Shown: piece after piece, positions 7,090 to 63,177 of the stretch
How positions within the stretch are numbered: the first letter of the stretch is position 1
Layout: each line of letters opens with the position of its first letter
Assembly: GCA_022822625.1 (NCBI GenBank)
Contig: JAJEAV010000005.1
Location: forward strand, 9,965-73,964
Reading direction: 5' to 3'
DNA: 64,000 bases
DNA from: Gammaproteobacteria bacterium
GTDB lineage: Bacteria > Pseudomonadota > Gammaproteobacteria > Arenicellales > Poriferihabitantaceae
Made by a program: the position numbers and the translations under genes
The notes under the pieces: generated by a model
What the model was told of the DNA's origin: nothing
Databases searched by the model: none
What the model saw: the letters and a program-made list of their open reading frames with translations, nothing else

Positions 7090-7574
7090 ATTTGCGGGTT
7101 TCGCGTCAGTAACCTGCAATATGCTGGACTGGAAGAGGTCTGGTCGGTCCGAACCCTCTGAACCAGCGTTGCACAACTCGTTACGAAAGAAAGCCTCTCT
7201 AATATGAATTGACTGGGAGCATTGACACCGTAGAGAAGTATGAAGCATGGAGGATTGACATGGCCAGGGCGGTATGGGCAAAGCTGAGAGCCAGCGATAG
7301 CCGGAAATATCGTAACTGTCATGCGTTTGAGTGCATGGATTTTACCATTCAGGAACCCCGGGCCAGATCAGACCACCAAACAGGGATAGACGAAGGACTA
7401 ATCTGCATCGACTGTCATCAGGGAGTTGCACACAAGCTGTCGTCGAACTGGCTTGAGGAATACGAGAAGTTGAAGAGCCCGGTATCGGCTTCAATATCTG
7501 GAAGGCTGTGGGTGGATGCACTGGCAAATACCGGCACCTATCAAGGTAACAATACGAGCTTACTGGCGAAATGA
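7090..7574 (+). pseudogene. Decayed NapC/NirT/TorC-family tetrahaem cytochrome c gene (C-terminal part only)
   Basis: IDTVEKYEAWRIDMARAVWAKLRASDSRKYRNCHAFECMDF...LICIDCHQGVAHKL matches the last two haem-binding regions of NapC. Upstream, another stretch reads ASVTCNMLDW...LRKKAS where NapC has ATCPDCH...IRKLKAS. There is an in-frame TAA at 7200-7202 and no N-terminal half. Confidence 0.6.
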
Positions 7575-7589
7575 ACCAGAAATTGGATT

Positions 7590-7849
7590 ATGCTTGAAAT
7601 TCTGGGGGGATCTTGGCAGGCAATGTCCTGAGTTTGCCGGGAATGTTCGGTCTGGGTATTGGCATGATGATTCGTTAACCGCATCTGGCTGGAAGTCTGG
7701 GCGGCTTTGTTGGCACATTGGTAGCCATGATATTTTCCGGATTCTCGCTTGCCCAGATCGATGTTCTTGAATTGACATTCCCGGTATGGGTTGGAATTGC
7801 TGCTGGTACGATCGGATGCATGATTCGCCATAGGGGTGCGACGGTATAG
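7590..7849 (+). pseudogene. Small glycine-rich membrane protein gene (GlsB/YeaQ/YmgE-like), disrupted
   Basis: ATG 7590 MLEILGG switches frame at a G6 run (7604-7609) to ILAGNVLSLPGMFGLGIGMMIR. An in-frame TAA follows at 7676-7678, then LAGSLGGFVGTLVAMIFSGFSL...GIAAGTIGCMI to TAG 7847-7849. Confidence 0.3.
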
Positions 7850-7917: not shown

Positions 7918-8835
7918 TCAGAACTGTTGGTTATCGCCTTGATCGTATCCGGGGGCGATAACGAGATTTTCAACTCCATAGAGTGCTGGCCTGTTTTTTA
8001 GCCAGAGGTGGTATTCCGGTCCTTTCAGGATATGGTCTTGGGTGCAGTCCACATTCCATCTCCGAAGTGCATAGCCTGCAACCGCAGCCCTTACCTTGAC
8101 ATTCAACACGCCGTTTTTCATCGCATAGTCGGCTTCAATTGTTTCTGGATGCTTGAGATTTGGGTGCGGTACAAGTTCCAGTTCCAGAATTCTATTCCAC
8201 TGAATATCCGATTCACGAGTTTCATGTTCACCAATCGGACTGTCGATAATCATGGGGTTGGAAATGCGGGTGACAACGAAATCGGAAAATCTCGATTGTT
8301 TTCGATCATAGCTCCGGATGTGCCAGCGTAGTCCGTTATCGACCAGTACAAACGGAACAATTTCGCGGGTAGTCTTGCCGCTGCTAAGAGAGTGATAATC
8401 AATCCTTATCACTTTGTCCTGGTGTATGGCGCGGGTCAAAACCGACAGGGTTGAGAGTGATGGCCTGTTCATCTGCATGGGCGTCTCGCACGAAATTAAC
8501 GCCCGGTTTGCACCAGCAAAGTCGCTTCCAAAGCCATGTGTAAGTGCTGACAAAACCTGGTTAGACGAAGCATCGTATAGAGGCGAGAAAAGGTCTGAAC
8601 GTTCATAAGTCTTGGCCTTGGTATCGTACCTTAGATTGGTTGGGGCCAGTTCCCTGTACAAGGTTATATCCCTGGTTGCCGCTGCTCCCTTGATGCCAAA
8701 TCGGGTCACAAGGTCGTTGCGACTGATGGTTCCCAGAAAACCGATTCTGAAATCGATGTAGGCGAGACGTTCTTTCTGCGCCTTTGCAATGACTTTAGCT
8801 GGGGTAGGAGGAAGTTGATATCCGATTTCCATCAT
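7918..8835 (-). CDS. wHTH-WYL transcriptional regulator (BrxR/CapW-like)
   Basis: N-terminal ERLAYIDFRIGFLGTISRNDLVTRFGIKGAAATRDITLYRELAPTNLRYD (wHTH pattern of BrxR/CapW) and a WYL core VIRIDYHSLSSGKTTREIVPFVLVDNGLRWHIRSYDRKQSRFSDFVVTRI. 305 aa. Confidence 0.75.
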   Translation of the reverse strand: MMEIGYQLPPTPAKVIAKAQKERLAYIDFRIGFLGTISRNDLVTRFGIKGAAATRDITLYRELAPTNLRYDTKAKTYERSDLFSPLYDASSNQVLSALTHGFGSDFAGANRALISCETPMQMNRPSLSTLSVLTRAIHQDKVIRIDYHSLSSGKTTREIVPFVLVDNGLRWHIRSYDRKQSRFSDFVVTRISNPMIIDSPIGEHETRESDIQWNRILELELVPHPNLKHPETIEADYAMKNGVLNVKVRAAVAGYALRRWNVDCTQDHILKGPEYHLWLKNRPALYGVENLVIAPGYDQGDNQQF

Positions 8836-8926: not shown

Positions 8927-9090
8927 TGAATAACATCTTGCGGCAGTTACCGGATAAAAAGGATTTCGCGCAAGACAAGAGTCACGAAAAGGTTTTTCAT
9001 TTTTACGCACAGAATTATACATAACAAAGGCTTCGCCCTCTTGTCCAATGGAGTGTTAACTGGTGATTGCCTTCGCTGAAAGAGACAACG

Positions 9091-9549
9091 ATGGATAACA
9101 ATCAATTACGTTTCGTCCCCTGCGATGCAGGGTGTGGGATGTCCATTTGGACCAGGACTCCCAATGGAAAAGATTGCAGGATTGACCTTGGACGATCTGC
9201 CACATTCTCGCCAGTCAAGTACTTTCCAAAACACAACCTGAATCATTCGGTCGATTTCCTGACTCACCGCCATACGCCACCTGGGAGTGGTGTATATGCA
9301 AAATACCTGTCAGGACATGGGCGTCAATACAAAAACCTGACTGGAAAATTCTTGTCGTCATGCTTCATTGAAGAGGTGGCGTGCACCTGTTCCAGAATGG
9401 AGGAATGGTGTAGGGATAATATGAAAACAGCATCGGGAGGTATTGCAGCAAGGGCCTCGGGCCTTGCTTTTCGCATTAACGAACTGAAATCAGTCTTCGC
9501 CAGATTTCCTCTTAACGGAGGCCCTGCCTTGTCTGCTCTTGTACTGTAA
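9091..9549 (+). CDS. Hypothetical protein; half-length paralogue of the downstream MBL-fold-like protein
   Basis: LRFVPCDAGCGMSIWTRTPNGKDCRIDLGRSATFSPVKY parallels LHFTLWDVRRGISIWIRTPNGQDHWIDLGRIPEFSPSKY of the next ORF. It carries LTHRH and ends where the C-terminal half of the paralogue would begin. Confidence 0.5.
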   Translation: MDNNQLRFVPCDAGCGMSIWTRTPNGKDCRIDLGRSATFSPVKYFPKHNLNHSVDFLTHRHTPPGSGVYAKYLSGHGRQYKNLTGKFLSSCFIEEVACTCSRMEEWCRDNMKTASGGIAARASGLAFRINELKSVFARFPLNGGPALSALVL

Positions 9550-9583
9550 GGCCAAACCCAACCTTTATACAAGGAAAACAACC

Positions 9584-10450
9584 ATGACCAACGAACCACT
9601 TCACTTCACCCTCTGGGATGTCAGACGCGGAATATCCATCTGGATAAGAACTCCCAATGGACAAGACCATTGGATTGATCTTGGCCGCATACCAGAATTC
9701 TCTCCCAGCAAATACGTCAGAAAAAATCATTCGATAGGTTCAATAGAATTGTTGATCATCAGCAGGGCAGGCAAGACACATCTCGAAGACTTGCCGTCAT
9801 TCAAAGATCATTTCTCTTATCCATCTGTCCTTTATCGAAACCCGACAATCCCTGAAGCAGAGATATTTGGAGGCATGACACACAAATATCAGAAGCAATA
9901 TGCTGAATTGCACAGAAGATTTAACTGGCCGGGAGGCGATGATAATCCAGAAAGACCGTCAAACAATGGCGGGATAAGATACGCAATAAACTGTCTTGAT
10001 CATGGTTCCGTAGTCAGCAACCCCGCGCTTCCCGAATCTGCCGTGATTGAAAACAACAATACTTCCATAGTTGTGATGTTGCTGTATGCGGGCGTGCTGT
10101 TTGTCTGCCCGGGAGATATTGAGCCGCTTGGATGGCGCGAGCAATGGCATCACTACTCGAAAGAATATAAATACCTCATAAATCATTCACATGCGAGATT
10201 TCTGGTTGCTCCACAGCGCGGACACAAGGATGCCTACTGTGAGGAAATGATGGAGGCAATCCAGCCCCATGCCACCTTCATCAATGATGTCTGGGGAGAG
10301 TCCGAAATTCACCCGTCCTATAAAAGCGATCCGATAGGAATTCTCTATCGGGAGTCAGGGATGAAGAAGTATTTCTCGACCCGGCGAGCCGGGTCGGTCC
10401 GAGTCGCTGTCTACCCGAGTGGAGAGCACTGTATTCTTCAACGTAGCTGA
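9584..10450 (+). CDS. ComEC/Rec2-type metallo-beta-lactamase-fold-like protein with substituted metal ligands
   Basis: FTLWDVRRGISIWIRTPNGQDHWIDLG resembles FLDVGQGDxxLIxTPxGKxxLIDxG. NNTSIVVMLLYAGVLFVCPGDIE resembles NxxSLVLxxxYGxxxFLLxGDxE. LVAPQRGHKD sits in place of LKVxHHGSK. The HxHxDH position reads SRAGKTH. RBS aagga lies 8 nt before ATG 9584. Confidence 0.5.
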   Translation: MTNEPLHFTLWDVRRGISIWIRTPNGQDHWIDLGRIPEFSPSKYVRKNHSIGSIELLIISRAGKTHLEDLPSFKDHFSYPSVLYRNPTIPEAEIFGGMTHKYQKQYAELHRRFNWPGGDDNPERPSNNGGIRYAINCLDHGSVVSNPALPESAVIENNNTSIVVMLLYAGVLFVCPGDIEPLGWREQWHHYSKEYKYLINHSHARFLVAPQRGHKDAYCEEMMEAIQPHATFINDVWGESEIHPSYKSDPIGILYRESGMKKYFSTRRAGSVRVAVYPSGEHCILQRS

Positions 10451-11095: not shown

Positions 11096-11515
11096 ATGAA
11101 AAGAGTCTTATTAATTGCAATAGCTGTATCTGTGTTGACCGGATGTTTCGATGATGCAAAATTGGCATCACGAAATTTAAGCAAGGCTGCCGACAATTTT
11201 GAAGTCATGCGCCGGGTAGTATTCATGAATGGAATAACTGATGCCTACATGCTGGAGATAGTTGGTTTGTGTTCAATTACAGACCAGGAGCATCAACTCG
11301 AAGTTACTTGTAAAAACGGTGATCAGTACGTTAAGCATTTTCTGGGTCTAAGTGACAATGTGACCTATTTCACCGAGCAGCTGACCGCGATAAACGTTTC
11401 GGCAAGTCATTATCGAGTTACTTTCAAGCCGCAGGCGATTATTCCTGATTTTGATCTACGAGGTAGTTTTGAGGAGTTGATCACGAATAGTTCAGAAATC
11501 AATAGTCAAGGGTAG
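11096..11515 (+). CDS. Lipoprotein (phage/plasmid-type small beta-rich lipoprotein)
   Basis: Signal peptide with lipobox MKRVLLIAIAVSVLTG|C, and RBS ggaga. From memory, ASRNLSKAADNFEVMRRVVFMNGITD...LGLSDNVTYF...YRVTFKP resembles lipoproteins seen on plasmids and prophages. Confidence 0.6.
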   Translation: MKRVLLIAIAVSVLTGCFDDAKLASRNLSKAADNFEVMRRVVFMNGITDAYMLEIVGLCSITDQEHQLEVTCKNGDQYVKHFLGLSDNVTYFTEQLTAINVSASHYRVTFKPQAIIPDFDLRGSFEELITNSSEINSQG

Positions 11516-11577: not shown

Positions 11578-11814
11578 ATGGCAAGACCGGAACTGGTCAA
11601 ATCTCTCTATAAACTCCTTGGCATTGATCAAAGTCTGCCATTATTTCAGGAATCAGAGATATATCTAATTCTCAAAAATGTCACTTATAGAGTAGATAGG
11701 CTGAAGACTGAATCAACATTGCTGATACCGCTTTGTGAAAGCGGTGAGTTGATGATTGTCGGGGCGGAATACGATCTCAAATCCGGCGAGGTGGATTTCT
11801 CTTTGGAGAGTTGA
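11578..11814 (+). pseudogene. Possible C-terminal remnant of a beta-carbonic anhydrase
   Basis: NVTYRVDRLKTESTLLIPLCESGELMIVGAEYDLKSGEVDF resembles the beta-CA C-terminus (NVxxQVxxLxxSPxL...GxLxIxGAxYDLxTGxV). The zinc-binding N-terminal two thirds are absent. Confidence 0.3.
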
Positions 11815-12096
11815 TTAGTGATGGGCATAGTTGGTTACAATACCATTAGAAGCAACGATGATTTCTCAATCTGGTTTTGTGTAAATAATGGGACCTTGGC
11901 ATGATATCTATTGATTTATTGCCATTCTCCAATACTTGGTTTGATTATGGCCGTTTGTAGCTTTGGAGATTCACAGTGCTCTGCTGGCGATGCAAGGCAT
12001 GCTTGGTATTCAGAAATACAATATTCCTCAAAAAAATAATAGGGTTAGTTTTTTGACTCGGCAAACGACAATAATATACAAAACGAGGTCAAGTTT

Positions 12097-12737
12097 ATGA
12101 GTAAGGCGAGAGGAGTAAGGCGAGAGACGATCTTGAGAATTCTTTAAAAGGCAAGACTTTTGGAACAGTTTTAGCAGATCCGCCTTGGCGGTTTACCAAC
12201 AGGACCGGGAAGGTTGCTCCTGAGCATCATCGTCTTTCTCGGTATGGAACATTGTCCTTCGAGGAAATAAAGGATCTACCTGTTATCGACTTGATGGAAG
12301 ATGTAGCACACTGTTATCTATGGGTTCCGAATGCACTGCTGCCATATGGCTTGAATACGCTTGCCGCATGGGGGTTTCAATACAAGACCAACTTGATTTG
12401 GCATAAAGTCAGAAAGGACGGCGGATCAGACGGGCGAGGGGTTGGTTTTTACTTTCGCAACGTCACAGAAGTGGTGTTGTTTGGAGTTAAAGGGAAAAAC
12501 GCCCGGACTCTACCTCCAGGGCGAAGCCAGGTTAATTTGATTGCTGCCCGAAAGCGTGAGCATTCTCGTAAACCTGATGAGCAATATGACCTGATTGAGA
12601 GATGTAGCTGGGGCCCGTACCTCGAATTATTTGGTCGAGGCACGCGAGAGGGGTGGACAGTCTGGGGTAATGAAGCAGTCAAATATCAACCCGACTGGCC
12701 AACCTACCCATACAACTCTGCTGTTGCAGCTCAATGA
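12097..12737 (+). pseudogene. MT-A70-family DNA methyltransferase (DPPW), frameshifted by a 14-bp tandem duplication
   Basis: FGTVLADPPWRF (DPPW at 12177-12188) and downstream HCYLWVPNALL...EHSRKPDE. ATG 12097 runs into TAA 12145-12147. Removing one 14-nt copy restores a 208-aa ORF. Confidence 0.8.
12099..12126. repeat. Perfect 14-bp tandem duplication (gagtaaggcgagag x2)
   Basis: 12099-12112 equals 12113-12126, checked base by base. Confidence 0.95.
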
Positions 12738-13482
12738 AAACCATTGCGGATCTAAAGGATGTAGGATTTGACATTCATGCCGTCAATCACGCTATGGCGG
12801 TTCTAACGAAGGACTTCCCTGACCCTTTGGGAGAATTATGCTCAGCCCTTCTTGATATCCATATTCCAGATGTAGAGTTGGTCAAGTCAGGAGGTGGTGA
12901 ATCGCCGGTTACACAAAGACTGCGCAGGGAATTAACAGAATTGAACTGGCTAAAGCGAAGGGTCGTAATCAGAAAAACAGTTGACAATGTCGAGAGACAT
13001 TCAATCACACATGAGATTGATCACATGAGATTGATCACATGAGGGTGACTGAAAAAGGAGTAGTTGCATTAGAGATCGAGTGGAACAACAAAGATCCGTT
13101 TTTTAATCGTGATCTTGATAATTTCCAGCGACTGCATAGCGAGGGGGCAATTAGCGTTGGTGTCATTGTTACCCGTGGTAGTTCTCTTCAGGAAAACCTA
13201 ATCCAAATCATAAGTGCATGCGTTATGAGGCATAAAGTTGCAGAGTTCGGGGATTTGGAAATGCATTACGATTGGGTGCCGACTCCAAGACAACGTAACA
13301 ACATGAGGGATAAAAAGGGAGACTTTGGCCAGGAGTGGGTCAAGCAGTTCGTTAAAGACAAATTTGGACAATCGACCACACACTGGAAAAAATTGCAGGA
13401 TAGGATAAAGCGCGGAGTTGGCAACCCATGTCCATTACTTTTGGTCGGTATACCAGACACAGTTATTTATCAAGGGAAATAA
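12734..13482 (+). pseudogene. Type II restriction endonuclease (BamHI/BglII-like PD-(D/E)xK), split by a 14-bp tandem duplication
   Basis: HEID...VALEIEWNNKDPFFNRDLDNFQRL...GAISVGVIVTR parallels BamHI ID...VGMEFETGNISSAHRSMNKL...GEIDLAIILMP. The track shows two ORFs (12734-13042 and 13039-13482). Removing one repeat copy fuses them in frame (244 aa). ATGA overlap with the methylase stop. Confidence 0.65.
13008..13035. repeat. Perfect 14-bp tandem duplication (cacatgagattgat x2, plus a partial third copy cacatgag to 13043)
   Basis: 13008-13021 equals 13022-13035, checked base by base. Confidence 0.95.
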
Positions 13483-13601
13483 CTAACACAAAATAACGAG
13501 CGAGGCATAGCCAAAACGCTTTCCAAAAGTAGAAGTACCGCTAAACATATCGGGTCATTGACAATTGCATGTTCAGTACAGTAACTCGCTGGAAATTCGA
13601 T

Positions 13602-14378
13602 TTATTCGATAAACTCGAATAGCCATTCGGTTAATTTCCCGGGTTCTTCGGCGTGTAGCCAGTGTCCTGAATCTGGCATAGTCTGAATGCTTGAGTTTGG
13701 AAACTGTTCTGCGATGAGACTGTAGTGCTCAGGAAGAATATAGTTTGAATTGCCACCCCGAACAAAAAGAATCTCGGCATCAGAAACATTGCCTTTCGAA
13801 TATCCAAACAGTAGGCTTCGGTTATTGGCAATTGCTTCAAGGTTGATTCTCCAGGCAAACCCACTTTCGTCTCGTATCAGGTTTTGGAGCAGGAATTGCC
13901 TGATTGATTGATCTGGAATGTCCAGTGTCAACATTCGGTCTGCCTCGTTTCTTGAATGAATATTCTCAAGGTCAAGTTTTCCCAAGGCACTAATAAGTTC
14001 ATCATGATCATGGGAGTAGTCAACCGGTGCGATATCAACAATCACGCATTTGTCCACTTCAGGTTGATGATGTTGCAGGTAAGCCATCACGACCTTGCCT
14101 CCCATACTGTGTCCAATCAAAAGGGGTTTTGCTAGGTGGCTGTTATGGATGAATGCTGCGAGATCTTCGGCCATATCCGGATAGCTCATCGAGTCTCTCC
14201 ATTCTGATTTCCCATGATTGCGAAGATCAACGCAAAAAACAGAAAATCGAGCAGCGAGTTTTGAGGCGATTGTTCGCCAGTTGCTGGATGAGCCAAACAG
14301 TCCATGCAGGATAACCACCGATGGATTTGATGGCTCTCCCATGTGGATTGAATTCAGATTGACGATCATCTGTTGCAA
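13602..14378 (-). CDS. Alpha/beta-hydrolase esterase (YbfF-like)
   Basis: VILHGLFGSSSNWR, nucleophile elbow GHSMGG, a C-terminal DSGHWLH motif; 258 aa. Confidence 0.8.
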   Translation of the reverse strand: MQQMIVNLNSIHMGEPSNPSVVILHGLFGSSSNWRTIASKLAARFSVFCVDLRNHGKSEWRDSMSYPDMAEDLAAFIHNSHLAKPLLIGHSMGGKVVMAYLQHHQPEVDKCVIVDIAPVDYSHDHDELISALGKLDLENIHSRNEADRMLTLDIPDQSIRQFLLQNLIRDESGFAWRINLEAIANNRSLLFGYSKGNVSDAEILFVRGGNSNYILPEHYSLIAEQFPNSSIQTMPDSGHWLHAEEPGKLTEWLFEFIE

Positions 14379-14391
14379 AAATATTATTGGC

Positions 14392-14429
14392 TTTCGAAAT
14401 AATATCGAAATTTCGAAATAATATCGAAA
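14392..14429. repeat. Perfect 19-bp tandem duplication (tttcgaaataatatcgaaa x2), intergenic
   Basis: 14392-14410 equals 14411-14429. It lies between the stop of the SRAP gene (14430) and the start of the esterase gene (14378). Confidence 0.95.
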
Positions 14430-15107
14430 TTAGCCGGTATTTGTACCTTGTTCAGGGTTGATCAAATGTGAACCCTGATTGGCCGGCCGGTTAACCTGTC
14501 TGCTAACCGGATAAGATTCAAATTCATCAGGATGTTGTAACATTGAAATGATGTGGAGCCAGTTCCTGCCTTTTTTGAGCCAGTCAAGGGCATGATCATG
14601 ATTTACTCTGACAGGCATGCGGGAGTGAATTTTGGCCAATTCCCCCATAGCTGAACGGGTAATGATGCTGCACGAATACAGCGGTTCGGTATTTTGTGGC
14701 CAGATGTCCCAGATTCCGGCAAGCATGATTGGTTCATCAGCTGCCAGATGAATGAAGTAAGGCTGTTTTCCTGAATCTTCATTTTTCCATTCGTAATATC
14801 CCCGGATAGGGACCAGGCAGGTTCTTGATTGTTTCCATGCTGTTCGGAAAGCAGGCTTCTCGGAAAGTGTTTCGATTCTTGCATTAAAGGTGGAGAATTT
14901 TGGGTTTATTTCCCTTGACCATGAAGGCACTAGTCCCCATCGCATTGACTGACCGGTTGGCCTGTTATTGTGGTGGTCATAGGTCAGTACTGGAATGTTG
15001 CCATTCGGAGCCATGTTGTAACTGGTTTCGCAGCCGAAAGGCCAGTCGACCAGCATTTCTTCCCAGGAACCGGGGTTGTCAATTTGATTTGCGAATCGGC
15101 CACACAT
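14430..15107 (-). CDS. SOS response-associated peptidase (SRAP/YedK family, abasic-site processing)
   Basis: N-terminal MCGRF catalytic Cys2 motif and 225 aa, which is typical of the SRAP family. Confidence 0.9.
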   Translation of the reverse strand: MCGRFANQIDNPGSWEEMLVDWPFGCETSYNMAPNGNIPVLTYDHHNNRPTGQSMRWGLVPSWSREINPKFSTFNARIETLSEKPAFRTAWKQSRTCLVPIRGYYEWKNEDSGKQPYFIHLAADEPIMLAGIWDIWPQNTEPLYSCSIITRSAMGELAKIHSRMPVRVNHDHALDWLKKGRNWLHIISMLQHPDEFESYPVSRQVNRPANQGSHLINPEQGTNTG

Positions 15108-62724: not shown

Positions 62725-63177
62725 CTATTCGGGATCGGGAATCACTGCGGTCGCCTCAATCTCCATCACCCACTCAGGTCTTGCCAGGCCCTGGACAATG
62801 AGCCCGGTCGATACCGGGTAGATGCCTTTCAACCACTTGCCAATTGCCTGATAGACATCATCGCGATACTTGCGATCGATGATATAGACCTGGATTCTGC
62901 AGATGTGTTCCAGTCTGGCGCCCACTTCCTCGAGTAATTGTTGCACATTCTGCATCGCTCGATCGGCCTGTGCATAGGCACCTTGTTCAGCAATGCTCTT
63001 GAAGTCATCGATATCCTGACCAACCTGTCCCCGTACAAAAACCATGGTGCCTTTTGCGCAGACCACCTGGCACAGATCGTTGTCGAGTTTCTGGTTGGGA
63101 TAGGTATCTCTTGTATTGAATTTGCGATGGCGGTAATGGATGCGATGGCGGTAATGGATATCACTCATGACGGACAT
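62725..63177 (-). CDS. RidA/YjgF-family protein with an internal 6-aa tandem duplication
   Basis: C-terminal ...VSTGLIVQGLARPEWVMEIEATAV is typical of RidA. The N-terminus contains IHYRHR-IHYRHR. Confidence 0.75.
   Translation of the reverse strand: MSVMSDIHYRHRIHYRHRKFNTRDTYPNQKLDNDLCQVVCAKGTMVFVRGQVGQDIDDFKSIAEQGAYAQADRAMQNVQQLLEEVGARLEHICRIQVYIIDRKYRDDVYQAIGKWLKGIYPVSTGLIVQGLARPEWVMEIEATAVIPDPE
63124..63159. repeat. Perfect 18-bp tandem duplication (gcgatggcggtaatggat x2), in frame within the RidA-family gene
   Basis: 63124-63141 equals 63142-63159, checked base by base. Confidence 0.95.

Follow-up and report, generated by a model that had tools for sequence, protein, structure and literature searches.

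The 64,000-nt stretch of DNA analysed here (the window) carries a two-gene Type II restriction-modification (R-M) cassette that was very probably inactivated recently, having decayed by short duplications. Each gene contains one perfect 14-bp tandem duplication. The features of the cassette are listed below, L092 being the locus of an intact sister allele and L002 that of the closest relative genome.

12097 to 12737, + strand: pseudogene of the cognate MT-A70-type (DPPW) methyltransferase, 208 aa when repaired (PF05063, PADLOC and intact L092).
12099 to 12126, + strand: perfect 14-bp tandem duplication in the methylase gene, 2.0 copies of GAGTAAGGCGAGAG (single copy in L092 and L002).
12734 to 13042, + strand: N-terminal fragment of the endonuclease pseudogene, 102 aa, holding the catalytic D96 of HEID (ORF list, profile match and alignment).
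13008 to 13043, + strand: perfect 14-bp tandem duplication in the endonuclease gene, 2.57 copies of CACATGAGATTGAT (repeat search; single-copy state in L092 and L002).
13039 to 13482, + strand: C-terminal fragment of the endonuclease pseudogene, 147 aa, holding E109-x-E111 (ORF list, homologues and alignment).

The array in the endonuclease gene consists of copies of CACATGAGATTGAT at 13008–13021 and 13022–13035, followed by a partial third copy, CACATGAG, at 13036–13043, and both the coordinates and the sequence given for it in the initial annotation were exact. Tandem Repeats Finder reported a period of 14, 2.6 copies and 100% matches. The derived insertion corresponds to one 14-bp unit, e.g. 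13022–13035, and the pre-existing microhomology is the 8-bp CACATGAG found at both ends of the array. The resulting frameshift is +14 (+2), and the protein stops after three aberrant residues (LIT) at a TGA. The split reading frames described previously were both recovered, with the first ending at the TGA at 13040–13042 and the second starting, in an ATGA overlap, at the ATG at 13039. Deletion of 13022–13035 gave a single endonuclease ORF of 244 aa, reproducing the in-frame fusion that had been predicted for removal of one copy. The 64-kb window includes four perfect tandem duplications with periods of 10–30 bp, compared with a mean of 0.2 in shuffled sequence; hence, the endonuclease array is not due to chance.

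The repaired endonuclease matched the Pfam family Endonuc-BglII (PF09195) with 95.2 bits (cut-off 26, E 4.6e-27) over residues 19–235, a region that crosses the duplication junction. More than 6000 homologues are present in databases, typically 244 aa long and 60–65% identical. D96, E109 and E111 were invariant in 57 aligned homologues, which bears out the earlier proposal that repair reunites a D-x12-E-x-E arrangement. An AlphaFold model of the repaired 244-aa protein, built from the 57-homologue alignment, had a pLDDT of 89 and a pTM of 0.86, and placed D96 on strand 86–101 and E109/E111 on the adjacent strand 104–111 of one β-hairpin. In this model, the break caused by the duplication falls in the catalytic hairpin, between D96 and E109/E111. 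A Foldseek search of the PDB with the model, a comparison that the initial annotation had proposed, returned three BstYI entries at the top (1vrr, 2p0j and 1sdo; E 3e-6 to 3e-5, probability 1.0, TM 0.52/0.61), and neither BglII nor BamHI was among the significant PDB fold matches.

The profile match above the cut-off, BstYI as the best fold and an acidic triad on a β-hairpin are features shared with the BglII/BstYI family and, as judged by sequence and model, support assignment of the repaired protein as a putative Type II endonuclease of this family. The BglII side of the original BamHI/BglII-like label was thus retained, and the BamHI side was given up because the significant fold matches were all to BstYI and neither sequence nor fold searches recovered BamHI. 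Identity with BstYI is 13–14%, however, and searches of PDB sequences and profiles with the repaired endonuclease and the 57-sequence alignment gave no meaningful match to solved structures. NCBIfam contained no match for the repaired endonuclease or the repaired methylase. BglII carries Gln at the third motif position and BamHI carries Glu; the endonuclease described here resembles BamHI in having Glu at this position. Unlike working BglII/BstYI systems, the copy in the window is inactivated. Residue 120 of the endonuclease (window positions 13093–13110) is Asn, whereas Asp is found in at least 90% of homologues and in the intact sister; the change, from PFFDRD to PFFNRD, may reflect post-inactivation drift or be older than the inactivation. 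Counts of hexamer and tetramer palindromes in the 64-kb window revealed no significant under-representation of those with a GATC core (AGATCT, 8 observed and 12.4 expected; GGATCC, 9 observed and 7.1 expected).

The ancestral state of the endonuclease gene was seen directly in a sister allele present at L092/L093 (KELL22-1_SAMN22237347) and L094 (SAMN22237346), from samples with the same study prefix as that of the window. L092 is ~96% identical to the window, with 91 mismatches in 2437 bp (~3.7% substitutions), and includes an intact methylase gene (208 aa) and an intact endonuclease gene (244 aa), each of which has its 14-bp unit once. The sister alleles adjoin the same abhydrolase neighbour as the cassette in the window, and the endonuclease protein encoded by SAMN22237346 is identical to that of SAMN22237347. 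The single-copy state was established at both sites for L092/L093 and L002, and at the endonuclease site only for L094. L092 reads ACACATGAGATTGATCACATGAGG, in which the octamer CACATGAG already occurs twice, 14 nt apart, as had been predicted for the sequence that preceded the duplication. Thus, the extra 14 bp in the window are derived. Among 74 homologous loci, the repeat at a 14-nt offset extends over 8 bases in L092, 6 in L008 (Arenicellales MAG) and 4 or fewer in the 72 others. The 8-bp substrate is therefore lineage-specific and no conserved feature, having arisen by chance from the codons used for T-H-E and H-M-R.

The repaired window ORFs have exactly the lengths of the intact L092 ORFs, so each gene has one lesion. 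Relative to L092, the repaired endonuclease gene had a dN/dS of 0.26 and the repaired methylase gene one of 0.10; the value for the abhydrolase neighbour, a housekeeping gene, was 0.22. These low values indicate purifying selection over essentially all of the ~4% divergence and, together with the single lesion per gene, indicate that inactivation was recent.

The endonuclease event is interpreted as a derived, microhomology-mediated tandem duplication that would have arisen by slippage, as the sequence of the two alleles suggests. The octamer CACATGAG would have been present twice, 14 nt apart, by coincidence of the codons for T-H-E and H-M-R. During replication, the nascent strand may have mispaired between the octamers and recopied the intervening 14 bp. 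The +14 (+2) frameshift parts the strand bearing Asp96 from that bearing Glu109-x-Glu111, leaving a truncated endonuclease, and as these residues are separated in the sequence and in the predicted structure, no active endonuclease is likely to be produced. The methylase, which would no longer be needed for protection of the chromosome, carries its separate 14-bp duplication at codon 6. In Type II systems, loss of the methylase is lethal while the endonuclease is active. Hence, the endonuclease was presumably lost first or simultaneously, though another methylase elsewhere in the genome could have altered the order of events.

Microhomology-mediated tandem duplication has been documented in yeast (PMC8639346) and reported across bacteria (bioRxiv 10.64898/2026.02.28.708716), and the endonuclease event resembles these cases in that a segment bounded by an 8-bp pair gave rise to a perfect, frameshifting duplication. 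The duplication in the methylase gene differs from them in having no microhomology. A search of the literature gave no direct precedent for inactivation or switching of R-M genes by short tandem duplication.

The duplication at 12099–12126 in the upstream methylase gene, which had also been reported in the initial annotation, is real and derived. It begins at the G of the methylase ATG and causes a frameshift at codon 6 that takes out nearly the whole protein, the DPPW catalytic motif included; no in-frame restart codon was found ahead of this motif. The repaired methylase matched Pfam MT-A70 (PF05063) with an E value of 9e-28 and PADLOC MTase_II with an E value of 1.7e-90. The gene lies directly upstream of the endonuclease gene, and the two overlap at ATGA, which holds the endonuclease start and the methylase stop. 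In nearly all of 45 related GTDB loci, a DPPW methylase (~210–230 aa) is encoded immediately upstream or downstream of the endonuclease (~245 aa), and in ~42 of these loci both proteins, encoded by abutting or adjacent genes, are intact. Pairing of MT-A70-clade methylases with BglII-type systems has already been described (PMC4738411). No microhomology (0 bp) flanks the methylase duplication, and simple slippage therefore explains this event poorly; the ancestral GAG...GAG repeats, considered as a slippage substrate, would predict duplications of 9 or 11 bp, not 14. The shared 14-bp length of the methylase and endonuclease duplications may be a coincidence.

Two further perfect duplications were found in the window. 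One, at 14392–14431, is a 19-bp tandem duplication (2.1 copies of TTTCGAAATAATATCGAAA) containing a TTTCGA/TCGAAA inverted repeat. It was considered as a frameshift of the SRAP gene and rejected on position, as it is intergenic, following the SRAP stop codon and preceding the abhydrolase start; the relative MAG has no such spacer, its SRAP and abhydrolase genes overlapping. The other, at 63123–63159, is an 18-bp duplication that keeps the reading frame of a RidA-family gene and repeats IHYRHR close to the N-terminus of the protein. It was absent from all seven aligned homologues, one of them 95% identical, and is therefore recent and lineage-specific. The window thus has duplications of 14, 14, 18 and 19 bp, of which three lie within 2.4 kb and three have no more than 2 bp of microhomology. 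Their density, four in 64 kb, is about seven times that in 645 kb of control loci (~5–6). It is distinctly unlikely, though conceivable, that the four mark a lineage-specific mutational process (e.g. impaired Okazaki-flap processing) or a rapidly reversible OFF state that toggles the R-M barrier.

Phase-variable R-M genes of Haemophilus, Neisseria and Helicobacter carry long tracts of 1–5-nt units that are conserved among strains. The cassette resembles these loci in that a change in repeat length puts an R-M gene out of frame, and it could be regarded as a reversible ON/OFF switch in which slippage of the 14-mers toggles the endonuclease and the methylase. Each gene has one exactly reversible lesion, and metagenome samples sharing a study prefix yielded both an intact and a disrupted allele. 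Duplications of this kind also revert at appreciable rates in S. pombe, ~100 times faster than they form and at roughly 1e-4 per cell (PMC8639346). The switch is nevertheless quite improbable. The locus has a 14-bp unit present only twice and not a long simple-sequence tract, the substrate is lineage-specific, being missing from 72 of the 74 homologous loci, and the endonuclease and methylase are off together, such that reversion of the endonuclease alone would be lethal. A hypermutable multi-copy tract conserved among relatives, by which phase-variable loci are recognised, is absent from the window locus. Further, the intact and disrupted alleles come from different samples and are ~3.7% substitutions apart, and hence represent separate lineages and not phase variants. 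The exact repaired proteins, which would be the intact version of the window allele, were absent from a collection of 15 billion protein sequences.

The equal length of two unrelated duplications, one of them without microhomology, would also fit 14-bp target-site duplications left in each gene after insertion and excision of a mobile element. However, the endonuclease event coincides exactly with the pre-existing 8-bp pair at a 14-nt spacing, as slippage predicts, and a transposon would strike such a repeat pair by chance only. No remnant of an element lies between the copies, and the two further recent duplications in the window measure 18 and 19 bp. Mobile-element footprints are therefore considered very unlikely.

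As the sequence is metagenome-derived, an assembly or sequencing artefact in place of a truly single-copy genome was also considered. Both duplications are present in the 140,946-bp contig of the window and, over 6444 bp, in the ENA scaffold ERZ23491076 (99.98%, 1 mismatch) and the Logan contig SRR16351689 (100%, 0 mismatches). A single read set probably underlies all three assemblies. However, two separate artefacts 900 bp apart would be unlikely, and the junctions GATTGATCACATGAGATTGAT and GCGAGAGGAGTAAGG should assemble only if the reads contain such k-mers; an artefact is accordingly highly improbable. A junction 23-mer gave 0 matches in the JGI metagenome contigs scanned. The sole sign of within-sample variation was a single G/C difference at window position 10393, where the window and the Logan contig differ from the ENA scaffold, though a minority of single-copy genomes may be present in the same sample.

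Finally, reassembly of the two endonuclease fragments into an active split enzyme is extremely improbable, since, even though the downstream ATG overlaps the upstream stop (ATGA) and translational coupling is possible, the break lies inside the catalytic β-hairpin, a split architecture is the norm in none of the more than 6000 homologues, and the cognate methylase is also destroyed, so that any activity would cut the host chromosome.

The cassette, inactivated by duplication in the window lineage, is at the edge of a small defence island. Window positions ~7.87–13.6 kb form a lineage-specific island of ~5.7 kb with a lower GC content, which is absent from the syntenic site of the Arenicellales MAG. 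In addition to the R-M genes and one ORF between the PDC-M48B-like and Phage_VG64-family genes, the island holds the following features.

7918 to 8835, − strand: gene for a WYL-domain regulator.
9067 to 9549: truncated paralogue of the PDC-M48B-like gene, 53% identical over the N-terminus.
9539 to 10450: PDC-M48B-like candidate defence gene.
11096 to 11515: Phage_VG64-family gene.
11578 to 11814, + strand: remnant (C-terminal third) of a β-carbonic anhydrase gene, 59% identity, E 5e-23, to the Pro_CA of L002.

In the closest relative, the cassette follows an intact copy of the carbonic anhydrase gene, and thus the remnant marks the old left-hand context of the cassette. A scan for promoters and terminators over 11700–13700 revealed nothing above the expectation from shuffled sequence. 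At 7191–7607, only a C-terminal NapC/NirT fragment is found, with an acetyl-CoA synthetase gene immediately after it. The napB, napA, napD and ferredoxin genes that come next in the relative MAG (L088, 9834–13656) are missing here, which indicates that periplasmic nitrate reductase was lost in the window lineage.

The closest genome is a MAG labelled Arenicellales (OZ241374.1), in which the endonuclease is 85–86% identical and housekeeping proteins are 79–93% identical to those in the window. This genome has one copy at both 14-bp sites, and the cassette is in a different genomic context from that in the window. The OZ241374.1 cassette (L002, 5379–6585), which follows the intact carbonic anhydrase gene, is itself dead: the methylase gene has lost 1 bp and, in the endonuclease gene, a CAG has become a nonsense TAA codon. 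These lesions are independent of those in the window, and decay of the cassette has therefore happened at least twice. The two genomes are alike in bearing the same cassette in an inactivated form, but differ in that both window lesions are perfect duplications of equal length and an intact, ancestor-like allele is still circulating.

Endonucleases ~60% identical to that of the window, each with an adjacent methylase, were found in MAGs (L010–L087) of Acidobacteriota, Chloroflexota, Acidimicrobiia, Latescibacterota, Dadabacteria, Alphaproteobacteria and Gammaproteobacteria. Many of the MAGs bearing homologues have isolate labels resembling those of sponge or coral studies, and the distribution suggests wide horizontal spread of the cassette within host-associated communities. 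The host of the window sequence is probably an Arenicellales-like gammaproteobacterium living as a sponge symbiont, and the sample codes suggest an origin in Ircinia sponge metagenomes (Kelly et al. 2022, PMC9531527).

The change described here is an ordinary loss-of-function mutation. The Type II R-M system that it affects is of a known type, and no new system or mechanism is involved; the local density of perfect 14–19-bp duplications is the one mildly unusual aspect. For annotation, the two endonuclease ORFs should be treated as one pseudogene. The intact L092 locus is a ready expression template for an uncharacterised BglII/BstYI-family pair and its recognition site. The cassette provides a natural example of the death of an R-M system: closely related populations, the samples of which are probably from one sponge-microbiome study, between them show the intact allele, the substrate prone to slippage and the broken product.
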